Source: a virus
Virus record (IMG/VR): IMGVR_UViG_3300025109_000004
Coordinates: 5,056-69,055 of that record
Reading direction: 5' to 3' (one strand)
Length of the DNA: 64,000 nt
The position numbers and the translations under genes are program-made. The notes beneath the pieces were generated by a model that saw only the letters and a list, made by a program, of their open reading frames with translations, did not search any database and was not told the DNA's origin. Below, piece after piece: positions 3,001 through 61,906 of the stretch (the stretch's first letter is position 1; each line of letters opens with the position of its first letter).

Positions 3001-3562
3001 TATTTGCTCTTGTGGCAGTAGCAACAAGAACATCATTCACCCTTCCCAATTCTTTAACAGGAAGTTGAAAAGCACTTAATATATTAGAAGCAATATCAGC
3101 AGCAGTTCCTAAATCTAAAACCCCCGCTGTTGCTAAATCTAAAACTCCCGGAAGTGCTACAATAGCCTGTTTTGCTCTAAACCCTGCCATACCCAAGAAG
3201 CCCAAAGCCTTTGCTGCTTGTGAAGCTGTAAATTCTGTAGTCCTTCCCATCTCTTTTGCAACATTGGTTAACATTTGAAATTCTTTTTCAGTAGCTCGCA
3301 TGACACCACGAACCTGTGCCATACTCTTTTCAAATGAAGCACCAATACGAATGGAAGCGGCGACGGCAACCCCTGCAGCAAGCACAAAGGTTGCACCAAC
3401 TGCCTTTGCAGCCTGAGTACCAACACGGCGGACATCCATAAAAGACTTCTGCATTTTAGAAGCTGATTTTTTAGTCTGGTCCTCAGCCTGCTTCAACGCA
3501 GTTTTGTACTTCTTACCGTCGATGTCTATTTCTACAAATACAGTTCCTAGCTTTGCCGCCAT
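1..3562 (-). CDS. Tail tape measure protein (TP901-like), 3' end runs off window
   Basis: Not in the ORF track. Translated by hand from ATG 3562: MAAKLGTVFVEIDIDG...GASFEKSMAQVRGV...MGRTTEFTASQAAKALGFLGMAG. Ala/Gly-rich and directly after the tail chaperones. Confidence 0.93.
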   Translation of the reverse strand, partial: MAAKLGTVFVEIDIDGKKYKTALKQAEDQTKKSASKMQKSFMDVRRVGTQAAKAVGATFVLAAGVAVAASIRIGASFEKSMAQVRGVMRATEKEFQMLTNVAKEMGRTTEFTASQAAKALGFLGMAGFRAKQAIVALPGVLDLATAGVLDLGTAADIASNILSAFQLPVKELGRVNDVLVATATRANTSVLQMGEAFKFAAPTAKALGFSIEETAAFIGLLGNAGVQGSLAGTNLAFIMGKAAKSGKGLVETLKELVDSEAPEVMKLFGDRSSKAALILRKQLSTYENFVRILKNAKGEAKELADIMRDTLQGSFDELKSTLEGKAIDFMDRYGKEVRFVVDWLILLVRQLNFATEALGENDTAVVSITKVSNDFVDSLKNISKFFGMLLKGILGVKLAFKTLTFVVVEFVREVFGLLKFILMPLDSILNRLVQLGKIDSNPLEGIQKALEGTSAELTISMNETAEEIININKALIETGILIDGLNQKEFGVIRSRDTGAGGAGVDTSILGGGAPSIPGLGETDPKKIAEKEKERSKESDAWVKFNIETVQRTKMKVPKLFEPEASTIDLFKGKTDFKLDQGILSTLLGAGLNKGKLEFPEQQVTDIIKKGPEPEQKKKKDGGAGDFLSKFGGIFEKLGEIMGLSAGKVLGKETGEALKKGGAAGKFEGLLQGAQVLQGAFQGGVQGGGAGVVSGGISGAMSGVGLASGLGVESPLGLAAAGGAGLAIGAGVAAFGAKKAKDDRKKEQEKQEKEFAKNLSLQLQKVQAEGFFSPFGTDLDPKFAKKFATIIKDWMNRVKKLGQQITSTITGAIQAGLNASTTTQALEQFRDKFGAGFTSIVVGQMADMMDTLMKRMLAPAFQVINDIAMAIELRFVEATEATRDAIGDIYKDLFKFVGKMLDNLFKKISSIKLIGPALEQGILGALLFALPGLVGALTPLFAAIGKASEKMFEPMFETMFKVTQMFEKLFNLQADWIKQMTRAGITLTDDMTANMVESVKDMWSDMTGIVSNALEEGFKSYSVSGGWENFQRSLKEGIFDMVVKGTAEALSKGIIFLGAIGPFLKDLGNLFVKAIFGGKFDQAEFSRILTGIATELPQMLEDNKKVFEGIADSIGDFGEILFGTGTTGGLTAADVTPGAKPKGQEEEVPTGFLQNFRLLNKMISFFMDLGEILGSRETFFDLDTTPI

Positions 3563-3567
3563 TAAAA

Positions 3568-3873
3568 TTATCCCTTAGAAATCAAGTAATGTTTTATTTC
3601 CATAAAAGCCCTGTTGCACAAATTAAAACATTTCATCTGCTTTCCCTTATCAACCTTGAGCCAATCCATGAAAATCTTTACCGCTACCAAATCCAACCCT
3701 AGAATATCCCCCATACCAGTTGTTTTAAACTGCCCCATAATATAGGGGAATATTCTTGCCGCCTCCTCATTCTGTGGAAGCACTTTTGGAATACAGAGAG
3801 AACAATCCGGTTTATCCTTTTTTATTTTCTCGTAATATTTCCTGCACTGTTCGCAGTTGGTCTCTGGTTGCAC
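3568..3873 (-). CDS. Tail assembly chaperone, frameshift extension (gpT-like)
   Basis: Lies between chaperone and tape measure; open and in the -1 frame from slippery site A AAA AAC at 3897-3903. Confidence 0.75.
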   Translation of the reverse strand: MQPETNCEQCRKYYEKIKKDKPDCSLCIPKVLPQNEEAARIFPYIMGQFKTTGMGDILGLDLVAVKIFMDWLKVDKGKQMKCFNLCNRAFMEIKHYLISKG

Positions 3874-34596: not shown

Positions 34597-35126
34597 TTTT
34601 TATTAATCTTAACCAAGGAGAGAGATCATGAGAAAACCAAATCACTGTTCGGTATTAACAGAAATTATCTGTGCAACCGAGAAATGTAACCGCCGGATCA
34701 AGAAAAATCTTTTTGAGAGGAAAGAAGGAAAAGGGAAAGACCTGTACTGCTACAAATGCTACAGAATAATGAGCGGGGCGGGACCGGAGAAAAAGAAAAA
34801 GAAAGAACAAAGCGTTTAAAGATTTTTTATTAACCTCATAGGAGGAAAGGAGATGAAAAAGATATTTTTGTTAATTTTCATATTTACATTCATGCCCCTG
34901 AATAAAAGTTTTGGACAATCAGAAATACCAATATCCATAACAGAGATTAGAATGGAGAACTCTTCTGATCCCCCCACTATACCAGAGGATAAAAACTGCA
35001 GAGAGATATTCTGGGCAATTGTGGGGACAATCTATACAGCTTTAACAGGAGAGGTGATATACCATGTTCCCGATACAGGCGAGGGACCATATTTATGAAA
35101 TACAAAAAACCATAGAAAGGAGGATC

Positions 35127-49836: not shown

Positions 49837-50760
49837 ATGCTGACAGTAACCAAGATATTTCGTGACATTTCCTATGGTCATCACCTGCCGGAGTATGATG
49901 GCAAGTGCAAAACCCCTCATGGGCACAATGCGACATTGGAAGTAGAGGTGGATGGAGTATGGGAAAATGGAGAGAAGGAAGGTATGGTATGTGATTTTAG
50001 TATTTTGAAAAGAATTATTAATAAGTATGTGATTGATATACTTGATCATCAGAACATCAATGATTTAAATTTATGTGATTATGGGGGAGAAGTTTTTCAA
50101 ACTATGCGTAGGATGATCAAGATGCCCACAGCCGAGAACATGGTCAAGTGGATTATAGAAGTATTAAGGAAACATTTTGGTGATCACCTCATCAGGGTCC
50201 GGTTGTATGAGACCTCCGATAGCTATGCCGAGTGGTATCGAGAAAATATAATTAACGAAGAAGTAAAGAGAAATGAAGAGGATTATTATTGCTCTGCAGT
50301 TGGTCATGATGAAATCGATTGTGGAGACGAGAATGAGTGTGGTGATTGTGAGCATTATATAGAAGTATCAAAGCAGAAGAAAACCCCCGGTGGTGAACAT
50401 TTAAAGCATCCAGTTATTAATAATATTTTTATACAAGCAAAAAATGATCCTAATATCGATAGTATTTGTACTGCTGCAGATAATGATGAAGTCGATTGTG
50501 ATGGAATATTCTGCAAGGACTGTAAATGGAATAAAGAGTTCTCATACATCGATTTTAAAATCAAACCCAAAGATACCAGAGTCCAACTGAAGAACCTGCG
50601 AGACGGGGCTATATTTGAAAACGAAAATAGTTGTAGATTAGTAAAAACAAGAATAATAAAAGATAACTCTATTCAGTGCATTTCTTTACATGAAGGAAGC
50701 ATTTGTCATTACCCAATCGATTACAAACCTCTTGTGAGGGAGATCATAATCGATGGCTGA
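49837..50760 (+). CDS. queD: 6-carboxytetrahydropterin synthase with ~170-aa C-terminal extension
   Basis: HHL..Y.GKC..PHGHN, GMV.DF..LK, LDH..IN, PTAENM, VRLYET. Confidence 0.9.
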   Translation: MLTVTKIFRDISYGHHLPEYDGKCKTPHGHNATLEVEVDGVWENGEKEGMVCDFSILKRIINKYVIDILDHQNINDLNLCDYGGEVFQTMRRMIKMPTAENMVKWIIEVLRKHFGDHLIRVRLYETSDSYAEWYRENIINEEVKRNEEDYYCSAVGHDEIDCGDENECGDCEHYIEVSKQKKTPGGEHLKHPVINNIFIQAKNDPNIDSICTAADNDEVDCDGIFCKDCKWNKEFSYIDFKIKPKDTRVQLKNLRDGAIFENENSCRLVKTRIIKDNSIQCISLHEGSICHYPIDYKPLVREIIIDG

Positions 50761-51439
50761 GAAAATAAAAATCTACTCAATATTCAATTCCATAGATGGG
50801 GAGGTCAACAGGTTTCATCAGGGAGGCTTCACCACGTTCATCAGATTTGCCGGTTGCAATTTAAAATGCTCCTACTGCGACACCCTGTACGCTCAGGATC
50901 CGAACTGCGGGAAGGAGATGACGGTTGCCCAGATCATAAAGGAAGTAAAAACGTTCGGGTGTAAAAAGGTCACCATCACTGGGGGCGAGCCGTTGATGCA
51001 GATAGATGGGTTCATAGAATTATGCCAGCAATTACAAGCTAGAGAGTATGATATCTCTGTTGAAACAAATGGGACGATCGATGGTGAGGAATTCATACAA
51101 TGTATTGACTGCTGGGTGGTGGACTACAAACTACCAAGTTCAGGGGTGAAAGAGAAACAGATCAATATGAATTTTTTGGAGGATCTGAATGATCAGGATT
51201 TTGTAAAGTTTGTCATAACATGCAAGGGGGATTATGTAATAGCAAAAAAGGCGATGAAAAAAATTATAAAAAATAACAGCAATTTTGATCCTCCTTACTT
51301 TGCTTTCTCCCCCATGCATGGTAGTCTGGAGCCACAGACCCTTGTCGAGTGGATACAGAAGGACAAACTGTTTGATAATATTATAATCAATCTTCAACTC
51401 CATAAATATATCTGGAAAAATGCGGAAAAGGAGGTGTGA
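50753..51439 (+). CDS. queE: 7-carboxy-7-deazaguanine synthase (radical SAM)
   Basis: IF.SIDGE, FIRFAGCNLKCSYCDT, TGGEP, ETNG, QLHK. Confidence 0.95.
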   Translation: MAEKIKIYSIFNSIDGEVNRFHQGGFTTFIRFAGCNLKCSYCDTLYAQDPNCGKEMTVAQIIKEVKTFGCKKVTITGGEPLMQIDGFIELCQQLQAREYDISVETNGTIDGEEFIQCIDCWVVDYKLPSSGVKEKQINMNFLEDLNDQDFVKFVITCKGDYVIAKKAMKKIIKNNSNFDPPYFAFSPMHGSLEPQTLVEWIQKDKLFDNIIINLQLHKYIWKNAEKEV

Positions 51440-51477
51440 AAATATTTTTTCATGGTTTGGCAAAACTGTGGTATAAT
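51439..51477 (+). promoter_or_regulatory. Conserved 39-bp promoter, copy 3
   Basis: Aligns without gaps to 42362-42400; has an extended -10 (TG.TATAAT). Confidence 0.85.
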
Positions 51478-51541
51478 GGTATCATAAAAAGTTGAGAGTG
51501 TTTCACAAAAAACAAAACCAAAACCAAAGGAGGGCAGCATC

Positions 51542-52090
51542 ATGAAAGCAACATTAAATGGAGAAAAAGTTGAACTGGCAAGAGAGGTTCCGAACAAAGA
51601 GATCAAGGCAATATCAACAAAGCTGAACAAGACCCACGGCACGAAGTTAAAGATCGTTGCCATATCAACCATCGCGATGATCGAAGCGTTCATCCTCAAG
51701 ATTGAGGAGCTGGATACCAGCAAGGCAAAAATCAATAAAGAGTTCTCCGATTTTTACAATGGGCTCTTTCCAAAAGCAGACAAGAAAAAACCTGCTGCAA
51801 AGAAAGAACCTGCCAAGAAAAAATCCGCTGCAAAGAAAGAACCGGCAAAGAAAAAAGAATCAAAAGGTCCTGGAGTGATTGCCTCCATTCTTGAATTCAT
51901 CAAAAGCGGTCCAATCACAAAAGAGAAAATTCTGACCAAATTGGAAAAGCGTTTCCCTGATCGTGATACTGTCGGTATGGAAAAAACCATCAAGGCACAA
52001 ATCAGCGGTAAGAAAAGACCTCTCCGGATGGAGAAGGAAAAGAAAGTCAAATTTGTCATCAGTGACAAGGGAGCTTATTCAATAAAATAA
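51542..52090 (+). CDS. Lys/Ala-rich DNA-binding protein (histone-H1-like linker, possible winged helix)
   Basis: AAKKEPAKKK repeats; GVIASILE..GPITKE.IL..L..RFPDR. Confidence 0.6.
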   Translation: MKATLNGEKVELAREVPNKEIKAISTKLNKTHGTKLKIVAISTIAMIEAFILKIEELDTSKAKINKEFSDFYNGLFPKADKKKPAAKKEPAKKKSAAKKEPAKKKESKGPGVIASILEFIKSGPITKEKILTKLEKRFPDRDTVGMEKTIKAQISGKKRPLRMEKEKKVKFVISDKGAYSIK

Positions 52091-52100
52091 AAGGAGGGTT

Positions 52101-52766
52101 ATGAAAACAAAAGCATTGGTACTTTTATCAGGGGGGCAGGATTCAGCAACCTGCCTCTCTTTGGCAAAACAAACTTATGATGAAATTTATACGTTGGCTT
52201 TTAATTATGGACAACGTCATCAAAGAGAACTTACCTGCTCCGCAAAACTTTCTCAGATTGCGGAGGCTCAACTTCATTTCACATTATTTGTTCCCACCCT
52301 TCAACATCTGGGGGGATCGGCTTTGGTTGAAACAGATTCCACCATCGATAAACCCCATTCAAAAAATAAAAATTTACCGGCATCATTTGTCCCGGGACGA
52401 AATTATATTTTTCTTGGGTTTGCTGCAGCGAAAGCCTATCAACTGGATATTCATGATTTGTATACAGGAGTATGCGAAACAGATTATTCTGGCTATCCGG
52501 ATTGTAGAAATGATTCAATAAAAGCTATTTCTTATGCCCTCAATCTCTGTCTTGATTATCAAATTATTATCCACACTCCTCTCATGAATATAAACAAAGC
52601 CCAAACAGTACAGATGATGGATAATCTTGGAACTCTTGATTGGTACAAACATACCCATACCTGTTACGAGGGTCAATATCCCCCCTGTGGTAAATGTCCT
52701 GCCTGTGCAATAAGGGCTAACGGATTTAAAGAAGCAGGTATCAAAGATCCTCTGGTGGAGGGTTGA
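52101..52766 (+). CDS. queC: 7-cyano-7-deazaguanine (preQ0) synthase
   Basis: SGGQDS, YGQRH, VPGRN, D.SGYPDCR, TCY...CGKCPAC..R. Confidence 0.96.
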   Translation: MKTKALVLLSGGQDSATCLSLAKQTYDEIYTLAFNYGQRHQRELTCSAKLSQIAEAQLHFTLFVPTLQHLGGSALVETDSTIDKPHSKNKNLPASFVPGRNYIFLGFAAAKAYQLDIHDLYTGVCETDYSGYPDCRNDSIKAISYALNLCLDYQIIIHTPLMNINKAQTVQMMDNLGTLDWYKHTHTCYEGQYPPCGKCPACAIRANGFKEAGIKDPLVEG

Positions 52767-52769
52767 CTA

Positions 52770-53342
52770 TTGACTAAAGAAACTTATGATGAAATTTATG
52801 CTTATTCAATAGATTGTATATGGAAGATGATTGAACTTGTTGGGGAAGATCCAGAACGGGAAGGGTTAAAGGATACCCCAAAACGAGTTGCAAAGGCATG
52901 GGAGTATATATTTGCAGGATATTCTCAAGATCCTAAAGATGTCATGACTACATTTGATTCTGATGGTTATGATGAAATAGTTCTATTAAAATCAATAGAG
53001 GTTTATTCGATTTGCGAACATCATCTCATGCCCTTTTTTGGTAAAGCCCATATCGCCTACATCCCTGATAAAAAAATTATCGGGATATCCAAACTCGCCC
53101 GACTCATTGATATCTATGCGAGACGAATGCAGATACAGGAACGGATCGGGGATCAGGTCACCACTGATTTGATGATTTATTTACAACCGCAGGGAGCTGC
53201 CTGTATTATTGAAGCAAATCATCTCTGTATGAGGATGCGGGGGGTGGAGAAACAAAATTCAACTATGGTCACCTCCTCCCTCAAAGGAGTATTCATGGAA
53301 GATGGTCGGGCGCGAGAGGAGTTGATGAGATTGATAAAGTGA
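52770..53342 (+). CDS. folE: GTP cyclohydrolase I
   Basis: GEDP.REGL..TP.RV, S.CEHH..PF.G, G.SK..R, QERI, H.CM..RG. Confidence 0.96.
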   Translation: MTKETYDEIYAYSIDCIWKMIELVGEDPEREGLKDTPKRVAKAWEYIFAGYSQDPKDVMTTFDSDGYDEIVLLKSIEVYSICEHHLMPFFGKAHIAYIPDKKIIGISKLARLIDIYARRMQIQERIGDQVTTDLMIYLQPQGAACIIEANHLCMRMRGVEKQNSTMVTSSLKGVFMEDGRAREELMRLIK

Positions 53343-54268
53343 AAATTTTACTTTCACGGAGGGAAAAATTGAAAAAGAAAAAACTTAATATCTTTTTAGA
53401 TTCAGGAGCATTCTCTGCATGGGCAAAAGGAGAAGAAATAAACCTGAAAGATTATATTGCCTTCATCAAGAAGTATGAAAAGTATATCGAGGTGTATGCC
53501 AACCTCGATGTGATCGGTGATCCCAAAGCCACATTAAAAAATCAAAAGAAGATGGAAAAAGCCGGACTATCTCCCCTCCCCTGTTTTCATTATGGAGAAG
53601 ACATTTCTTATCTCAAAGACTATATCAAAAATTATGAGTACGTCAGTCTTGGAGGCATGGTCCCCATTTCTTCAGCCGATTTAATAAAATGGTTGGACAA
53701 AATTTTCGGTGAATACATTTGTAACACCAAAGACCACAAACCAAAAGTCAGAGTGCATGGATTCGGAATGACCTCATTCGATCTGATGTTGAGGTATCCT
53801 TGGTATTCAGTTGATAGTACTTCATGGGTGATGACCGGACGGTTCGGGGGAGTGATGGTCCCTAAATTCAGGAAGGGAAAATACTCTTATGAAACTTCTC
53901 CTTTAAAAGTTGATGTTTCCACCCGCTCTTCCTCAGTCAAGAAAGAGGGTCAGCACATCACAACATTTTCTGAGTTGGAGCGGCAGCAGATCCTGAAATA
54001 TTTTACTCATAAGGGATATAAATTAGGAGTTTCCAAATTCAAATCGGTTAAAGAAAAAGGGTATACGTTAAAAGACAATGAGTGTTGGAATGGGAAAGCT
54101 AATAAGAATGGTGATAAGGAGGTGGAGGAAGTTATCGAAAAAGGTATCTGTAATCAGTATAAACAGAGGGATGAATTAAACATAATTTATTTTTTAGATT
54201 TAGAAAAAAATATGCCTACCTATCCCCAGCCCTTCAAACCACAAAGAATAGGGGGACTGGGATTGTGA
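53339..54268 (+). CDS. dpdA: DpdA-like DNA transglycosylase (TGT fold); start may be TTG 53369
   Basis: FLDSGAFS, NLDVIG, PCFHYGE, LGGMV, VHGFG, PWYSVDSTSW; directly after queC-folE. Confidence 0.8.
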   Translation: MKILLSRREKLKKKKLNIFLDSGAFSAWAKGEEINLKDYIAFIKKYEKYIEVYANLDVIGDPKATLKNQKKMEKAGLSPLPCFHYGEDISYLKDYIKNYEYVSLGGMVPISSADLIKWLDKIFGEYICNTKDHKPKVRVHGFGMTSFDLMLRYPWYSVDSTSWVMTGRFGGVMVPKFRKGKYSYETSPLKVDVSTRSSSVKKEGQHITTFSELERQQILKYFTHKGYKLGVSKFKSVKEKGYTLKDNECWNGKANKNGDKEVEEVIEKGICNQYKQRDELNIIYFLDLEKNMPTYPQPFKPQRIGGLGL

Positions 54269-54450
54269 AGATATATTTAGCAGAATTGGGAGAGGAGAAT
54301 TATGGAAACTATCGTCAGGCAAGTTTTAATTTCAAGAGGGGGGGATGTTTATTGTTTTCATTTTATGATTTGACTATAAGCCCGTTTCCGTATCGAAAAC
54401 AAACATGGAGAATTTTAATTGAAACTTTATCTTGCAGGAAGAAACTTTGA
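54265..54450 (+). CDS. DpdA N-terminus-like micro-ORF 1
   Basis: MKIYLAE...LLFSFY; GTGA overlap with the dpdA stop. Confidence 0.55.
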   Translation: MKIYLAELGEENYGNYRQASFNFKRGGCLLFSFYDLTISPFPYRKQTWRILIETLSCRKKL

Positions 54451-54561
54451 AAAAGATATACGATTGAGAGAGAGCTATTTGAATTGAAAGCAAATCGGTT
54501 AATTTCTTTTTTCAATAGGAGGACGGTTATAATAGTTATTGAAGTGAGATTAACAAAATGA
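54419..54561 (+). pseudogene. DpdA N-terminus-like micro-ORF 2, frameshifted in a GA run
   Basis: TTG start with GGAG RBS: MKLYLAGRNFEKDIRLRE / LFELKANRLISFF after removing one GA. Confidence 0.5.
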
Positions 54562-54686
54562 AAATATATTTTGCCTCAGTAGATACAATTAGACTCACAA
54601 CTTTTTATTATATAAAATCATCGAAAATTATTGTTCAATTAAGGAGGGCACTCATACATGAAAACAAAAACACAAGAACTGCTTGA
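54558..54686 (+). CDS. DpdA N-terminus-like micro-ORF 3 (42 aa)
   Basis: MKIYFAS...RLTTFYY; ATGA overlap with the micro-ORF 2 stop. Confidence 0.5.
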   Translation: MKIYFASVDTIRLTTFYYIKSSKIIVQLRRALIHENKNTRTA

Positions 54687-55704
54687 CATACTTACCAACC
54701 TCAAACCGGGATTGGCACAAAAGGATATTGTGGAGCAGATGACCCACTTCATTTTTACCGGCTCCAACGCTGTCACCTACAATGACCAGATTTATATCTC
54801 TCACCCATTTGAAACTCCATTCAAAACATCGGTTCCAGCACAAGAACTCTTGCAACTACTTCAGAAGGTTGAATCAAAAAATACCATCCTAAAAATGGAA
54901 GAAAACCAGTTGAAAGTCAAGTGTGGGAAGGTATCTGCAGGGTTCTCTACCCTTGTGGAAGATCAGGTCTTTAAACTCCTCCCCGCCCTTGAAAAACAGC
55001 TGAGGAAATCAAAATGGGACCGACTTCCAGAACAGGTGCAGGAAGGATTGAAACTTACCATGTTCTCGACAACACAAGATATGATGAAGTATAGTCAGGG
55101 ATTGACCTGTGTCTATGCAAATAAAAACTCGATTACTTCAAGTGACGGACACAGGGCTGGGATCTTCCAACTTGATGACAGTATCAAACATTCCTTTTTG
55201 TTGACCGCTATCACGATCCCTGAACTTCTTAAGCTTGATCCCATAAAATACTGTCTCACCGACTCATGGATAAATTTTAAAAATAAAGAGGGAACGGTGT
55301 TTAGTGTTAAAAAGATCGTGGTGGAGGAGAATGTGCTCAAGAATGTGGATAAGTTCTTTGACTCGTTCAAGAAGAAAAAGAGGAAGGTGAAACTGCCGCA
55401 GGATAATCTGTTGAAGGCTGTTGATGTGGGGGCTATCATAGAGCAAAGTCAAGTGGATATGGAAAAGCGGATAAAAATCAGTATCAGCCCTGATGAACTG
55501 ATTGTCGGGTCAAAGCGGGAGACGGGGTGGATAGAAACATCAGTGGAGATTGATTATGAGGGAAAGCCGGTGGAGTTCCAGATCCACCCCGAGTACTTCT
55601 CCAATATCCTTAACCATGCAACAACTATTTATATCGGGGAGGACAAGGTATTCTTTGAGTCGAGTAACTTCAAACATCTCATCTGTATGTATATGGAGGA
55701 GTAA
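54658..55704 (+). CDS. dnaN: DNA polymerase sliding clamp (DnaN/beta-like)
   Basis: 348 aa; SVPAQ.L..LL, SSDGHRA, F.I.PEYF..IL; size and pattern fit the three-domain beta clamp. Confidence 0.75.
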   Translation: MKTKTQELLDILTNLKPGLAQKDIVEQMTHFIFTGSNAVTYNDQIYISHPFETPFKTSVPAQELLQLLQKVESKNTILKMEENQLKVKCGKVSAGFSTLVEDQVFKLLPALEKQLRKSKWDRLPEQVQEGLKLTMFSTTQDMMKYSQGLTCVYANKNSITSSDGHRAGIFQLDDSIKHSFLLTAITIPELLKLDPIKYCLTDSWINFKNKEGTVFSVKKIVVEENVLKNVDKFFDSFKKKKRKVKLPQDNLLKAVDVGAIIEQSQVDMEKRIKISISPDELIVGSKRETGWIETSVEIDYEGKPVEFQIHPEYFSNILNHATTIYIGEDKVFFESSNFKHLICMYMEE

Positions 55705-55707
55705 TTT

Positions 55708-58308
55708 TTGACAACCAGAAAACTTTTTGACATAAAAAAAATGAAACCCGCTGATCAGATCATCACCGAGCCCCATTGTCTCAAGTGTGGTCTTGATAGA
55801 AAATGTCAAACCCCGAAAATGAAGTGGACGGGAAAGGGAAGGCAGAAAGTTCTAATATGGGGGGAGGCTAATGGTGCTACTGAGGACGAGTCGGGTATCC
55901 AATTCAGTGGTGATGCTGGGGATGTTCTGAGAACCGAGTTGAAAAAGAATGGTCTTGATCTTGACAAGGATTTCTGGAAGGACAACTCCCTTGGATGCAG
56001 ACCAATGAACCCGAAAAAAACTGCCAACAGACCCCCCACAGATGCCGAGATAAAATACTGTAGACCCAGAATCAGAAAAGTTGTGGAGGAACTAAAGCCG
56101 GAGCAGATTTGGTTATTTGGTGGCATGGCGGTAAAGAGTTTCCTTGGGCAGAAGATCAGTGATTGTGCTATCAACAGATGGAGGGGGCTCTGTATCCCGG
56201 ACAGGGATGTTAATGCATGGGTGCTCCCGATGTTCCACCCCTCCTACCCAATGAGGGACTCAAAAAATTATAATCTTAAATCGGTCTTTGAGAGGGATAT
56301 AAAATTTGCCTGTTTACAGATCGGAAAAGAGTTCCCGGAGTTTAAGGATGAGTGGAAGCAGGTTAAAGTATTAAAAACATTTGATAAGGTATGTAATGCC
56401 CTTGAAGATGTATTACATTGGCAACCAAAGTATTTTTTCTTTGACTATGAGACCACCGGGATCAAACCCCATAAAGAAGGAAGTAAGATAGCGTCTATTT
56501 CCTTTACCTCATCAATTACCCCCTTACATGCCTATAGTTTCCCCTACGAGTTCAATAATTACTGGACTCCTCTCCAGTTACGACAAATTAGAAAACGATG
56601 GATCAAGATTCTCAAACACCCAAAGATAAAAAAAGTGGCTCAGAACTCCAAGTTTGAGGATAGCTGGTCGAGAGTGATCTTTAATACTGTTCCCGATCCT
56701 TGGCACTGGTGTACTATGAACTGCTCTCATGTGCTTGACAACCGGCAATATTTCTCAAGCCTTACATTTCAACTCTACATCCAATTCGGTATTAATCCAT
56801 ATGACAAAGAGATGAAGAAATATCTTGAGAGCAAGGATTCAACGGGGTTCAATAGAGTAATGGAAGCCCCTCTTGATAAACTGCTGGGGTATGGGGGGAT
56901 GGATAGTCTTGGTGGGTATAAACTATTTCTTAAACAGCAACAGGAACTAAAAGGGAAAAAGAAAAAAGCATTTATGTTTTTCATGGATGGGTTGGAGGTA
57001 TTCTCCGATATACAGGAAAATGGGATCCCTGTAGATGACCTGTATTATGAGAGAAAAAGAAAGAGGCTGACAAAACAGATCACAGAAATGGGGAATGAAC
57101 TGGTTAATGGAGTGGAGGGAAAAAAGTTCAAAGAGAGGGAGAACAGGGAACTTAAACTTACGTCAAATAAGGATATGGGTATTTTATTATATGAGGTTTT
57201 AAAGTTTCCTGTAATTAAGACACAAGATGGAAAAGGAAAGAACTACTGCGTCGATGTAAATGCTCTGGAGCAGACCGATTCTGATTTCACGAGAAAACTA
57301 TTGAGAAAGAGGAAATTGGAAAAAGTTATGGGGACATATATTGCCCAGTTCCAGAGGGAATCTGTTGGCGATATCATGTACCCGATATTCGACCTCCATA
57401 CCACGAGGACATACAGACCCAGTGGTAGCAAACCAAACTTCACAAACATTCCAAGACGTGATAAGGAAGCAAAAAATATCTGTCGCGGTGGGATTATTCC
57501 AAGCAAGGGAAATAAACTTGGGGAGTTTGACTTTAAGGGGATAGAGGTAAATATTTCCTGTTGTTACCACCACGATCCTACCATGATAAATTATGTAACT
57601 AATCCAAAATCAGATATGCATAGGGATGGAGCATGTGATATCTGGCAACTAACTAAAAAAGAAATTACAGATGATATACGTGATAGGGTAAAGAATGATT
57701 GGACGTTCCCCCAATTCTATGGTGATTGGTACATGCAATGTGCAGAATCATTAATAAAAGATTGTTTCAATCTAAAGACCACATCAGGTATTATTTTAGA
57801 AGATCATATAGCAGGATTTAATAAGAAATCATCATGGGTGACTGATAAAGAGTATTTTGAAAACCACTGTAAGGAAGCAGAGAGGATAATGTGGGAAGAG
57901 CGGTTCCCGGTCTACGCCCAATGGAAAAAAGATATTAATAAATTCTACAGAAAGCATGGTTATATTGAAACCCATATGGGATTTCGATACACGGGGTATA
58001 TGGGCAGGAACGATGTTACCAACTATCAGACTCAAGGAACGGCTTTCCACTGTCTGCTCTGGACTCTGATACAGGTGAACGAGATATCCAAAAAGGAAAA
58101 ATGGGGAAGCAAGATTATCGGACAGATATATGATAGTATTGTTTTTGATCTTGTGCCTGATGAGCAGGATCATATTATAGAAACGGTCAATAGGATTGGT
58201 ACGAAGGAGATTAGGAAAGAGTTTGATTGGATCATCGTGCCATTGAGTATCGACTTTGAGGTAACCCCGATTGATGGGGCATGGAACGAGAAGGAGAAAG
58301 TAAGATGA
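55708..58308 (+). CDS. polA: Family A DNA polymerase with N-terminal family-4 UDG-like domain and 3'-5' exonuclease
   Basis: UDG: C..CGL...C, GEA.G..ED..G..F.G.AG, CRP..N..P, FHPSY. Exonuclease: DYETTG, N.KFE, Y...D. Polymerase: PN..NIP, DF..IE, R...K...F..FYG, QGTA, IYDS. Confidence 0.93.
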   Translation: MTTRKLFDIKKMKPADQIITEPHCLKCGLDRKCQTPKMKWTGKGRQKVLIWGEANGATEDESGIQFSGDAGDVLRTELKKNGLDLDKDFWKDNSLGCRPMNPKKTANRPPTDAEIKYCRPRIRKVVEELKPEQIWLFGGMAVKSFLGQKISDCAINRWRGLCIPDRDVNAWVLPMFHPSYPMRDSKNYNLKSVFERDIKFACLQIGKEFPEFKDEWKQVKVLKTFDKVCNALEDVLHWQPKYFFFDYETTGIKPHKEGSKIASISFTSSITPLHAYSFPYEFNNYWTPLQLRQIRKRWIKILKHPKIKKVAQNSKFEDSWSRVIFNTVPDPWHWCTMNCSHVLDNRQYFSSLTFQLYIQFGINPYDKEMKKYLESKDSTGFNRVMEAPLDKLLGYGGMDSLGGYKLFLKQQQELKGKKKKAFMFFMDGLEVFSDIQENGIPVDDLYYERKRKRLTKQITEMGNELVNGVEGKKFKERENRELKLTSNKDMGILLYEVLKFPVIKTQDGKGKNYCVDVNALEQTDSDFTRKLLRKRKLEKVMGTYIAQFQRESVGDIMYPIFDLHTTRTYRPSGSKPNFTNIPRRDKEAKNICRGGIIPSKGNKLGEFDFKGIEVNISCCYHHDPTMINYVTNPKSDMHRDGACDIWQLTKKEITDDIRDRVKNDWTFPQFYGDWYMQCAESLIKDCFNLKTTSGIILEDHIAGFNKKSSWVTDKEYFENHCKEAERIMWEERFPVYAQWKKDINKFYRKHGYIETHMGFRYTGYMGRNDVTNYQTQGTAFHCLLWTLIQVNEISKKEKWGSKIIGQIYDSIVFDLVPDEQDHIIETVNRIGTKEIRKEFDWIIVPLSIDFEVTPIDGAWNEKEKVR

Positions 58309-59576: not shown

Positions 59577-60956
59577 ATGGACTATAATAATTTCCTAAAA
59601 TTAAAAATACATAAAATAGAGGGAACAGGCATCATAATTAATCATAATAAATTAAACCCAATGCTTTTTGATTTTCAAAAACATATTGTTAAATGGGCAT
59701 TGAAAATGGGACGTGCTGCTATATTTGCCGATACCGGAACCGGTAAAAGCATAATGGAATTTGAATGGGCCAAACACATAATTAAAAAAACAAACGGCAA
59801 TATACTATTATTAACTCCTATTGCTGTGGGTGAACAGATGCTAAAAGAGGCTGAAAAGTTCGGAATTGATGATGTAACACGGTCACGAGATGGAAAGATA
59901 AAAAGTAAAATAACGATAACAAATTATGAAAGACTCCATTATTTTAATCCCAGTGATTTTATTGGTATGATATGTGATGAATCTGGCATACTCAAAAACT
60001 TTAAATCAACCACAAAAAGAGGAATAAATATTTTTGTTAGAAAAATAAAATATCGATTATTGGCAACTGCAACAGCAGCCCCAAATGATTTCATTGAGCT
60101 TGGCAATTCATCTGAGGTGCTTGGATACCTTGGGTATATGGATATGCTATCACGCTTCTTCAAGAATGATCAACAAAATTGTGCAACTAATAAGGGTATG
60201 TATAGGGAAATAATAAAATGGCGTCTAAAAAATCACGCACATATATCTTTCTGGCAGTGGGTATGTAGTTGGGCAATAGCATTGAGAAAACCATCTGATT
60301 TAGGTTATGATGATAACGGTTTTATTCTCCCGGCATTAGAAGAAAATTATCATAAACTTGAAATATCAAGGAAACCAAATCGAGGACAGTTATTTACTTT
60401 CCCAGCACATGGATTGAAAGAAGTCAGGGATGAACGAAGGGCCACATATAAACAAAGATGTGAAGCTATAGCAGAGATTGTTAATAAAATAGATGATTAT
60501 TCTGTTGTTTGGTGCAATTTAAATGATGAGGGAAATTTGCTGGAAAAGTTAATAGATAATTCTGTTCAAATCAGTGGTCGTGACACCGATGACAGTAAAG
60601 AAAGAAAACTAATAGATTTTTCAACAGGCAATATCAAAAAACTTGTCACAAAGCCAAAGATAGGGGCTTGGGGGTTGAACTGGCAGCATTGTAACCATGT
60701 GGCTTATTTTCCGGCATACAGCTATGAACAGATATATCAGGCGATAAGGAGATGTTGGCGTTTCGGTCAAAAGAGGAAAGTTACTGTTGACTATTTTTAT
60801 ACCCAGGGTGATGTAAATTCTATTAAAAATTTAGAAAGAAAGAAACAACAGGCGGATGAAATGTTTACCAAACTGACAGAGGAAATGAACAATCCATTGA
60901 ATCTAAGAAATACAATAAATTTTAATCAGGAGGTTAAATTACCATTATGGGCGTGA
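59577..60956 (+). CDS. SNF2-like helicase coupled to DNA methyltransferase
   Basis: FADTGTGKS, CDES, ATATAAPND, QAIRRCWRFGQ. Confidence 0.88.
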   Translation: MDYNNFLKLKIHKIEGTGIIINHNKLNPMLFDFQKHIVKWALKMGRAAIFADTGTGKSIMEFEWAKHIIKKTNGNILLLTPIAVGEQMLKEAEKFGIDDVTRSRDGKIKSKITITNYERLHYFNPSDFIGMICDESGILKNFKSTTKRGINIFVRKIKYRLLATATAAPNDFIELGNSSEVLGYLGYMDMLSRFFKNDQQNCATNKGMYREIIKWRLKNHAHISFWQWVCSWAIALRKPSDLGYDDNGFILPALEENYHKLEISRKPNRGQLFTFPAHGLKEVRDERRATYKQRCEAIAEIVNKIDDYSVVWCNLNDEGNLLEKLIDNSVQISGRDTDDSKERKLIDFSTGNIKKLVTKPKIGAWGLNWQHCNHVAYFPAYSYEQIYQAIRRCWRFGQKRKVTVDYFYTQGDVNSIKNLERKKQQADEMFTKLTEEMNNPLNLRNTINFNQEVKLPLWA

Positions 60957-61906
60957 TAAATCAAAAACATACAAATGAATATAGTATATATGAAGGTGAT
61001 TGTATTCAAGTGATGGCAGATTTAAAAGACGAGTCTATTGATTTATCGGTATATAGTCCTCCTTTTGCGGTGGGTAGCGGTGGCCTTTACATATATTCAA
61101 GTAGTGAAAGGGACTTGTCAAATTCAGATAATTATGATGATTTTTTTAGACATTACAAGTATGCATTAAAGCAATTATTTAGAGTAACAAAGCCCGGTAG
61201 ATGTACAGCTGTTCATTGCATGGATACCCCGAGCAGTAATTCAGGACAGGATTACCTTATTGATTTTCCCGGCGATATCATAAGAGCACATGAGAAAGAA
61301 GGTTTTAATTATATTGCTCGCCATTGCATATGGAAAGAACCGTTAACGGTACGAAACAGGACTATGACAAAAAACCTTGCACACGCAACAATTGTAAAAG
61401 ATTCAATTTATTGTGGCGTGGCTTCTGCTGACTATCTTTTGATTTTCAGGAAAAAAGGAGAAAACAAAATTCCTATAACTCATAAGAGAGGGCTAACTAG
61501 ATACTATGGCGAAAGAAAAATACCTAGTAGTTTACTTAAATATAAAAATTGGAAAGGCAAACAGACAGAAAATCGTTTTTCTCATTGGATATGGAGACAG
61601 TATGCATCCTCTTTTTGGGATGATATACGATTGGATAATGTTTTAAAATTTAAAGAAGGTAAGGATGAAGATGATGAAAAACATATACATCCCCTTCAAC
61701 TAGATGTAATAGCCCGGATAGTTGAACTTAGATCAAATCCGGGGGAGATTATATTGTCTCCATTTATGGGCGTTGGAAGTGAGGTTTATGGATCTGTTAC
61801 CAATAACAGGAAGGCAATCGGTATTGAATTGAAACCGAGCTATTACAAACAAACTATAAAGAATTTAAAAGGAATAAAAAAAGAACAAATAAAAAGACTA
61901 TTTTAA
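60947..61906 (+). CDS. Beta-class amino-DNA methyltransferase (probably m4C)
   Basis: GDC, SVYSPPF (SPPx), KHIHPLQL, SPFMGVGS, GIELK. Confidence 0.88.
   Translation: MGVINQKHTNEYSIYEGDCIQVMADLKDESIDLSVYSPPFAVGSGGLYIYSSSERDLSNSDNYDDFFRHYKYALKQLFRVTKPGRCTAVHCMDTPSSNSGQDYLIDFPGDIIRAHEKEGFNYIARHCIWKEPLTVRNRTMTKNLAHATIVKDSIYCGVASADYLLIFRKKGENKIPITHKRGLTRYYGERKIPSSLLKYKNWKGKQTENRFSHWIWRQYASSFWDDIRLDNVLKFKEGKDEDDEKHIHPLQLDVIARIVELRSNPGEIILSPFMGVGSEVYGSVTNNRKAIGIELKPSYYKQTIKNLKGIKKEQIKRLF

Follow-up and report, generated by a model that had tools for sequence, protein, structure and literature searches.

The DNA analysed here, referred to as the window, is a 64-kb stretch of a linear, 69-kb virus record in IMG/VR (IMGVR_UViG_3300025109_000004) that CheckV rates as 77% complete, and the subject is its gene for DpdA together with three small open reading frames (ORFs), termed micro1, micro2 and micro3, that follow this gene. 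DpdA decides which guanines become 7-deazaguanines, and hence which host restriction and CRISPR (clustered regularly interspaced short palindromic repeats) systems a phage escapes. The gene belongs to a replication and DNA-modification module on the + strand (49837-58308 and beyond), in which genes for the synthesis of 7-cyano-7-deazaguanine (preQ0), encoding QueD, a QueE-like enzyme, a QueC-like enzyme and FolE, lie immediately upstream of dpdA (Table 1). The original prediction, made from the letters of the window, held that DpdA reaches the motif FLDSGAFS within 8-18 residues of its start, that three overlapping micro-ORFs follow it, the second one frameshifted, and that the barrel segment missing from DpdA is supplied in trans by interchangeable peptides. 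The coordinates of DpdA, both of its starts and all three micro-ORFs were confirmed.

Table 1. Positions of the dpdA locus, its small ORFs and the neighbouring genes in the window
Feature	Position	Strand	Remarks
QueD (6-carboxytetrahydropterin synthase)	49837-50760	+	preQ0 context; Pfam PTPS, E 5.7e-28, residues 9-134
QueE-like radical S-adenosylmethionine (SAM) enzyme	50753-51439	+	preQ0 context; Pfam Radical_SAM E 4.6e-15, Fer4_12 E 6.2e-11
Lys/Ala-rich ORF, 182 residues	51542-52090	+	between queE and queC
QueC-like preQ0 synthase	52101-52766	+	named from its SGGQDS motif and from synteny with annotated relatives
FolE, GTP cyclohydrolase I	52770-53342	+	Pfam GTP_cyclohydroI E 2.8e-72
DpdA catalytic core (beta3-beta8 and C-terminal region), without beta1-alpha1-beta2	53369-54268	+	PHROG 887, similarity to 9g
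micro1, intact 61-residue stand-alone N-terminal unit	54265-54450	+	beta1 MKIYLAE, beta2 LLFSFY
G7 homopolymer inside micro1	54338-54344	+	codes for ..RGG.. just before beta2, in frame
micro2, first half	54419-54487	+	beta1: MKLYLAGRNFEKDIRLRESYLN, then stop; TTG start at 54419, stop after 22 codons
micro2, second half, -1 frame	54451-54561	+	..IERELFELKANRLISFF..; matches C-terminal halves of family members
(GA)4.5 tract inside the frame-change stretch of micro2	54466-54474	+	
micro3, 42 residues	54558-54686	+	MKIYFAS..RLTTFYY; ATGA overlap with the stop of the micro2 second-half frame
Sliding clamp (DNA polymerase processivity factor)	54658-55704	+	PHROG 947 E 1.2e-25; downstream edge of the unit array
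Fusion of uracil-DNA glycosylase (UDG) and PolA	55708-58308	+	directly after the clamp gene; then helicase, N6/N4 methylase and clamp loader

The DpdA core and its N-terminal unit

The dpdA frame opens at a GTG at 53339, with which the folE stop overlaps, and contains an alternative TTG at 53369 that is preceded by GGAGGG, leaving 18 or 8 residues, respectively, ahead of FLDSGAFS. Of the two, the TTG is the more probable start; it is also where P0001 (299 residues; P numbers denote public protein cluster representatives) begins. Comparison of the window DpdA with PHROG 887 ("queuine tRNA-ribosyltransferase", E 5.8e-59) revealed that the match begins at profile position 53, and the identity to DpdA of phage 9g is 41.3% over 73% of the query (tblastn, E 7e-51). 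In the DpdAs of NP1, ART, Vid5 and PSASB_03, 58-59 codons precede the position aligned with window residue 17, and 61 codons precede it in 9g. The extra N-terminal residues of these full-length phage proteins, approximately 45, follow the pattern M.[IV][FY].A[AG]...LES[YW]HY, so the unit that the original prediction placed ahead of DSGAFS is found in all five. No such unit is present in the open frame upstream of the window dpdA start, and the polypeptide lacks approximately 45 N-terminal residues (beta1-alpha1-beta2) of a complete (beta/alpha)8 barrel. By these alignments, the window DpdA is a putative split variant of the phage subfamily DpdA1.

The residues D21, D57, G105-G106, H140-G143 and D159 of the core are invariant in 5/5 aligned sequences, and across the 89 clade sequences D21, D57, G105-G106, H140 and D159 are invariant in every one, with G141-G143 nearly so. 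Judged by their order and spacing, they would be equivalent to D95, D130, G206-207 and D256 of bacterial DpdA. The clade comprises 4123 proteins at E<=1e-20. Among its 120 best cluster representatives, 90 have a short DpdA (no more than 32 residues before the DSGAF strand, mostly 6-12), whereas in the remaining 30 at least one unit is fused to DpdA, and these fused units vary in sequence. Short DpdAs are the rule in the clade, which argues for a working gene. A circular permutation, with the C-terminal extension replacing the missing strands, was ruled out, as members of the clade with fused units carry the same extension. The related-locus and protein searches returned no DpdA relative above ~65% identity to the window protein, and no Pfam family matched the units, the window DpdA or any of four full-length phage DpdAs. 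The neighbours of DpdA in the ESM Atlas are viral clusters, one of them with PF23859 DpdA on 29% of its members (score 0.93); the same atlas gave no usable match for a unit.

Profile-to-profile comparison (hhalign) aligned the unit family with columns 1-47 of full-length DpdA at a probability of 91.8% (E 7.5e-7), and the family alignment anchored on micro1 gave 83.2% (E 8.7e-6) against the same target. On this profile evidence the micro-ORFs are shown to be homologous to the N-terminal segment that the window DpdA lacks, the outcome that the original prediction had expected from an alignment of homologues. The intact member of the array, micro1, starts at a GTG that overlaps the dpdA stop as GTGA, and is present in the public collection as protein P0271. 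It shares 39% identity over 57 residues (E 1e-6) with the first unit of the two-unit protein P0122, and its linker of 22 residues is of normal length. Its subtype, ..LLFS[FY][FY]DL...PF.(R)K..W(R).L, resembles the units L047_4443 and L099_4399 (L numbers denote related loci, described below), and in L099 the micro1-type unit is the sole unit near the short DpdA.

For the complex prediction, the window DpdA (with an alignment of 88 short homologues) was combined with micro1 (48 family members). The interaction prediction score from aligned errors (ipSAE) was 0.78, 0.81 and 0.79 (median 0.79), against 0.00 for the best of three controls, and the runs share at least 74% of contacts, with a predicted local distance difference test (pLDDT) of at least 63 for the partner and 83-84 for the other chain. 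The ipSAE mark is reached by 58 of 80 solved complexes and by 2 of 110 mismatched pairs, counts that hold only roughly here because custom alignments were used in the model. In the predicted complex, DpdA 155-161 (WYSVDST, with the invariant Asp159) pairs in parallel with residues 1-8 of micro1, as does DpdA 18-23 (IFLDSG, with the catalytic Asp21) with micro1 residues 29-34, and the C-terminal helix of DpdA (275-295) packs on micro1. Motif order assigns six strands to the core (IFLDSG, VYANLD, PLPCFH, YVSLGG, VRVHGFG and WYSVDS), and with this assignment the unit would supply beta1 and beta2 between beta8 and beta3, closing the barrel. The docking of micro1 at the beta1/beta2 position agrees with what the original prediction had anticipated for such a model. 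A pass in this test means that the pieces fit and is not proof that the window copy binds; the model suggests that core and micro1 bind each other, and the catalytic activity of DpdA would then depend on the unit.

The other two ORFs of the array differ from micro1 in their state. The second half of micro2 (..KANRLISFF..) matches P0175 with 55% identity over 20 residues (BLAST), and lies out of frame with the first half. In micro3, which overlaps the clamp start (54658), the linker between beta1 and beta2 is 5 residues long, shorter than in all 129 relatives (range 9-26). This ORF corresponds to the micro1 subtype minus approximately 10 linker residues, shows 37% identity, with gaps, to L094_4165, had no homologue in a word search, and is probably an internally deleted, dead copy. 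With micro2 out of frame and a 5-residue linker in micro3, micro1 is the only credible partner here, and only micro1 looks functional in the window. The proposal of interchangeable peptides acting in trans thus holds in part: the segment is absent from DpdA, and micro1 is homologous to it and docks in the model, whereas the interchangeability of the three window peptides is hypothetical. The whole array, including the micro2 frameshift, is letter-for-letter identical in contigs of four further sequencing runs from four studies, and the frameshift is therefore not an assembly error. A contig of run X8 belongs to a diverged strain (14 differences in 128 bases, window 54637-54764) and matches from the clamp start on but is unrelated further upstream, so that the array ahead of the clamp gene differs in a close relative.

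The condition of micro2 and micro3 raises the question whether all three ORFs are functionless, decaying leftovers of duplication or recombination, with DpdA using a unit from the missing ~23% of the genome or being itself on the way to loss. Besides the frameshift, the out-of-range linker and the missing homologues of micro3, the weak family scores of the window copies and the incompleteness of the record would fit such decay. We nevertheless consider it improbable: micro1 is an intact 61-residue ORF with both strand motifs, a normal linker and a start coupled to the dpdA stop, it resembles the L047, L099 and P0122 subtype along its whole length and docks with high confidence in the model, the array is identical in the contigs of the four further runs, and the DpdA core keeps all invariant residues of the clade.

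The unit family in related loci

Related loci were retrieved from viral and metagenome contigs in three sets (7 + 19 + 80), and these 106 loci contain 166 intact unit ORFs (132 unique) of 30-95 residues that match the unit profile from their first residues. Units lie ahead of dpdA, in the interval from dpdA to the clamp gene, or in that from the clamp gene to the polymerase gene, and related phages carry 1-5 paralogous units each, fused or free. Linkage was counted in 74 non-redundant loci with at least 700 nt upstream and at least 1500 nt downstream of dpdA. A short DpdA is encoded in 31 of them, and at least one intact separate unit (1-5, mean 2.2) lies within 2.5 kb in 30 of these 31; in the sole exception, L046, a frameshift at a G8 run interrupts a fused unit. 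The split arrangement is thus a trait of the family and not peculiar to the window phage. In the other 43 loci, all or part of a unit is in frame with DpdA, and separate intact units are present in 36 of the 43. Since free units also accompany fused DpdAs, the mere replacement of a missing piece can explain only part of the picture.

The family was also approached from the unit side, independently of DpdA, with a degenerate DNA pattern. Among its 46 matches, 22 are units and the rest are unrelated proteins or truncated units; DpdA is found in the retrieved locus for 15 of the 22, and for the other 7 an end of the locus is no more than ~1.8 kb away. A profile of 21 units retrieved 516 cluster representatives at E<=1e-3 from 1.84 billion proteins, and the best 150 of the 516 are nearly all 44-117 residues long; one match, P0168, is a spurious repeat protein. 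PHROGs contain no family for the units. A given unit type can be fused to DpdA in one genome and free in another, a Rosetta-stone relationship, and units can stand in tandem and in frame ahead of the core (three in P0170, two in P0208). In the tandem fusions P0170, P0208 and P0074 (= L040), only the last unit can adjoin the barrel contiguously. In two loci, L015 (~2140-2971) and L016 (~1340-1625), the short DpdA is immediately preceded by another DpdA-like ORF, which is shorter and has a fused unit of its own (MKIYYAAGAMNL..VLISYYG..DSGAF), and the fused unit of L056 (~2357-2524) has an in-frame TGA right after MKIYLA, a nonsense change without a frameshift.

These arrangements bear on the view that the short DpdA works alone, the N-terminal unit having become dispensable in this clade, and that the micro-proteins form a small-protein family of their own, derived from DpdA N-termini, with another job such as the regulation or inhibition of DpdA or a role at the clamp or polymerase. 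Free units are as frequent beside fused DpdAs as beside short ones, further units lie between the clamp and polymerase genes, and 75% of the nearest DpdAs are short, all as this view would have it; yet a (beta/alpha)8 barrel would not be expected to close when two neighbouring strands are missing, the same units also occur fused in frame to the core, the model docks micro1 in the beta8/beta3 gap with controls at 0.00, and the conserved residues of the units are those of the two strands that form the modelled interface. We regard a DpdA that works alone as unlikely, while the free units beside fused enzymes and beyond the clamp gene leave room for another function of the units, in addition to barrel completion or in its place.

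The units are under purifying selection as proteins. The proportion of nonsynonymous differences (pN) is below that of synonymous ones (pS) in 47/47 inter-locus unit pairs of 60-97% identity; synonymous sites are saturated in 28 unit pairs, and the 18 informative pairs have a median ratio of nonsynonymous to synonymous substitution rates (dN/dS) of 0.175. Conservation is restricted to the two strand motifs (M1, Y4, A6 and L..S), and the linker has neither a fixed sequence nor a fixed length (median 19, range 9-26). The possibility, raised with the original prediction, that the peptides are unconserved, decaying duplicates does not hold for the family. Start codons lie on the stop of the preceding ORF in 103 of the 132 unique units. 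A conserved DNA or RNA element in place of a protein was ruled out by the dN/dS values.

A further proposal places the function of the units at the DNA level, as silent cassettes transferred by gene conversion to the 5' end of dpdA, in the manner of pilin and polymorphic-toxin loci, or as repeated regulatory DNA, in either case without separate translation. In locus L011, a single unit (3439-3621) is a hybrid of two neighbouring units of L010, with the first half of one and the second half of the other, which points to recombination within the array. This hybrid, the interconversion of fused and free forms and the A/T-rich start sequence common to all units speak for such cassettes. The strong selection against amino-acid changes alongside saturated synonymous sites, the units' own start codons on upstream stops and a conservation confined to two strand motifs, as amino acids, make the DNA-level proposal very improbable as a full account; cassette recombination and translation of free subunits are, moreover, mutually compatible.

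Repeat tracts and the proposed mechanism

Analysis of simple repeats in the 64-kb window revealed three tracts of this type, two of which are the G7 and (GA)4.5 tracts of micro1 and micro2; the two halves of micro2 would share one frame if one GA unit were removed or two were added. The third window tract, (GA)4 at 34618-34625, lies just upstream of a 63-residue ORF that starts at 34628. A frameshift survey of 92 non-redundant sources comprised 188 intact units and 38 units with the beta1 and beta2 halves in different frames. A simple repeat is found where the shift must lie in 29 of the 38 frameshifted units, and (AG)>=4 or a G/C run of at least 7 occurs in the shift stretch of 26/38 frameshifted against 37/188 intact units (odds ratio 8.8, p 9.6e-9, an optimistic value as the loci are related). 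The 26 comprise 18 with (AG)>=4, up to (GA)8.5, and 8 with G/C runs of at least 7. Tract densities are 1.09 and 0.62 per kb in unit regions, against 0.041 and 0.020 elsewhere in the loci (27- and 31-fold). The (AG)n tracts encode the Arg-Glu repeats of the family and the G runs encode Pro-Gly-Gly-Gly, and Arg-Glu is coded by AGAGAG in 35/110 cases in units against 18/291 elsewhere (p 2.5e-10).

Repeat tracts inside the reading frame at the sites of frame change, the mark of a contingency locus, are thus found in the window and in its relatives. In fused forms, a conserved internal Met 7-12 residues before FLDSGAF corresponds to the start used by short forms, and the tract may switch DpdA between the full-length protein and the core started at this internal Met. 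Programmed ribosomal frameshifting in micro2 was rejected, as no slippery heptamer was seen and the shifts in relatives go both ways at repeat tracts. The tracts inside the units favour, indirectly, the idea of switching.

The account that we consider the most probable, with some confidence, is a naturally split DpdA, consisting of a core and a free quarter-barrel subunit, here micro1, drawn from a multi-copy and partly repeat-switchable family of modules. The trans-completion of the DpdA barrel is its well-supported part. In the proposed mechanism, the phage would make preQ0 with FolE, QueD, QueE and QueC, and the split DpdA transglycosylase would insert preQ0 into DNA. The 299-residue core would hold beta3-beta8 together with two Asp residues, the invariant one in DSGAFS and that in VDSTSW, and beta1-alpha1-beta2 with the following loop would be produced as a small protein of its own. 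Micro1, its translation coupled to the dpdA stop, would insert between the last and the first core strands and complete the barrel and the rim of the active site. Slippage at (AG)n or poly-G/C tracts would move units in and out of frame, and the state captured in the window would be micro1 ON (G7 in frame), micro2 OFF at (GA)4.5 and micro3 deleted. With several copies of units and slippage tracts within them, the best reading of the array is that its units are alternative N-terminal modules for one core, each of which can be switched individually.

Several observations weigh against this account of a split and switchable enzyme. Halves of split genes tend to pass the complex test through their likeness to fused or solved barrels, and the openness of the core barrel without a unit is a prediction from the alignment and from the complex model. 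When the core protein and two profiles were compared with PDB sequences, no match was significant, 7UI4 appearing only at E 0.93 over 26 residues. The window copies are divergent, with E-values against the family hidden Markov model (HMM) of 0.13-0.16 for micro1, 0.46-0.77 for the second half of micro2 and 0.006 for the whole of micro3; micro1 alone is not significant against the DpdA alignment (probability 1.9%), and a word search found no close homologue of micro1 outside its own cluster. The free units beside fused-unit DpdAs and beyond the clamp gene belong here as well; an enzyme with a fused unit has no obvious need of them. As regards switching, the G7 and (GA)4.5 tracts are short for fast slippage, and the contigs of the four other runs, which hide minor variants, show neither variation in the tracts of the window phage nor any other polymorphism in its array. 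At homopolymers with identical flanks, L034 and L035 differ as G8/G9 and C8/C9, which could be real slippage or sequencing error, and the related loci are not independent samples, which makes all p-values optimistic.

A more far-reaching extension, which we put forward tentatively and hold to be possible at best, is a combinatorial, phase-variable DNA hypermodification in this clade of uncultured phages, in which one DpdA core is completed by whichever paralogous module is in frame. Slippage and recombination would alter the motif or the density of 7-deazaguanine insertion between virion lineages; as an "epigenetic coat change", this would be a form of bet-hedging against restriction enzymes and defences that depend on modification, and the enzymes would be the first natural family with a TIM (triosephosphate isomerase) barrel assembled from a free (beta/alpha)2 quarter. 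From the position of the module, it is plausible that different modules change the DNA motif or the level of modification, because the module would carry DNA-touching loops beside the active site. An exchangeable, motif-proximal quarter-barrel, if true, would make the motif choice of DpdA directly testable. It would also mean repeat-tract switching of DNA modification in a phage, so far a bacterial theme, and a natural case in which a quarter-barrel completes a TIM barrel in trans. In annotation, hundreds of "hypothetical" ORFs of 45-70 residues beside dpdA would gain a role, and short dpdA genes should not be assayed as lone proteins.

Neighbouring genes and comparison with known systems

The label of the QueE-like enzyme is based on gene position and on the annotation of relatives. 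QueD is 307 residues long, and its PTPS domain, which ends at approximately residue 134, is followed by a Cys-rich extension of ~170 residues with two similar Cys clusters and no Pfam match. The 182-residue protein between queE and queC has AAKKEPAKKK repeats, is histone-H1-like and belongs to no Pfam family. Downstream of the clamp gene, a UDG-superfamily domain (PF03167, residues 44-197, E 1e-19) forms the N-terminus of a family A DNA polymerase, and an N6/N4 DNA methylase at 60947-61906 (PF01555, E 4.9e-21) lies in the same module as dpdA and is therefore a second DNA-modification enzyme of the phage. No intrinsic terminator was found on the + strand between 49500 and 56000. The window sequence is present in nine marine-metagenome runs (at least half of the sampled words), and the listed runs containing it include no RNA runs. 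A contig scan gave no host signal, matching contigs of metagenome-assembled genomes (MAGs) of mixed taxa only, and a DNA-level comparison with an isolated-phage collection yielded zero matches.

The window apparently represents a somewhat run-down member, with one good unit, one off and one deleted, of a widespread and undescribed architecture: the main texts searched describe no split or N-terminally truncated DpdA and no accessory small subunits, although short forms might appear in the supplementary gene tables of PMC6884629 and PMC10516641. The closest known relatives are the phage DpdA1 proteins (9g, CAjan and Queuovirinae such as NP1 and iggy), which have the invariant motifs DSGAFS, LD.IGD, PLPCFH, GG, HGFG and DS.SW in common with the window protein and share its gene order folE-dpdA-clamp-polymerase and the adjoining preQ0 genes. 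In 9g and NP1, DpdA1 is a single chain with a fused N-terminal unit, whereas the window has a separate unit in several copies, and the clade of the window has a longer C-terminal region. According to excerpts of PMC10516641, 9g DpdA1 inserts preQ0 into DNA, and DpdA1 of Cellulophaga phage phiSM is inactive when expressed alone in E. coli. The phiSM gene (L186 1872-2594) encodes 241 residues with the fused N-terminal unit present; it was therefore ruled out as a short form, and its inactivity is not explained by a missing unit.

Bacterial DpdA, from the Dpd restriction-modification system of Salmonella Montevideo (PDB 7UI4), is likewise a TIM-barrel transglycosylase but a single chain of 436 residues that works with DpdB. 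In the parts of PMC10164549 on which we draw, an insertion between beta1 and alpha1 (Ins1) helps to form the DNA-binding surface, an insertion between beta2 and alpha2 (Ins2) flanks the active site and may give sequence specificity, and the first catalytic Asp (D95) follows beta1, Ins1, beta2 and Ins2. By motif order and spacing, and without a structural alignment, the Ins1 and Ins2 elements described there would correspond to the split-off unit. Excerpts of PMC4591997 and PMC13137295 describe the assembly of (beta/alpha)8 barrels from separate pieces, with a (beta/alpha)2 quarter as the proposed evolutionary unit. Such fragment complementation was engineered or designed, in contrast to the present natural family, which is split at the first quarter and in which the piece is kept under selection.

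For the switching of DNA-modifying enzymes, Type I hsdS loci rely on recombination between specificity cassettes. Hypermutable poly-G tracts in Campylobacter phages, the subject of Sorensen et al. (2021, Cell Rep 35:109214; cited in PMC10877375), are said to be a precedent for phage phenotypic diversity through repeats, and reportedly affect receptor-binding proteins. In the window family, by contrast, the tracts are in modules of a DNA-modification enzyme, and many of them are (AG)n. Phase-variable Type III mod DNA methyltransferases of bacteria are switched by simple-repeat slippage, as stated in excerpts of PMC5909438. The likeness of such phasevarions to the present system would lie in a DNA-modifying activity with a switched expression or specificity module, the switching being putative for the window phage. 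Phasevarions are bacterial, act by methylation and switch a whole enzyme or a target-recognition domain, whereas the system of the window is phage-borne, would act by base exchange and has a quarter of the catalytic barrel as the candidate switched part.

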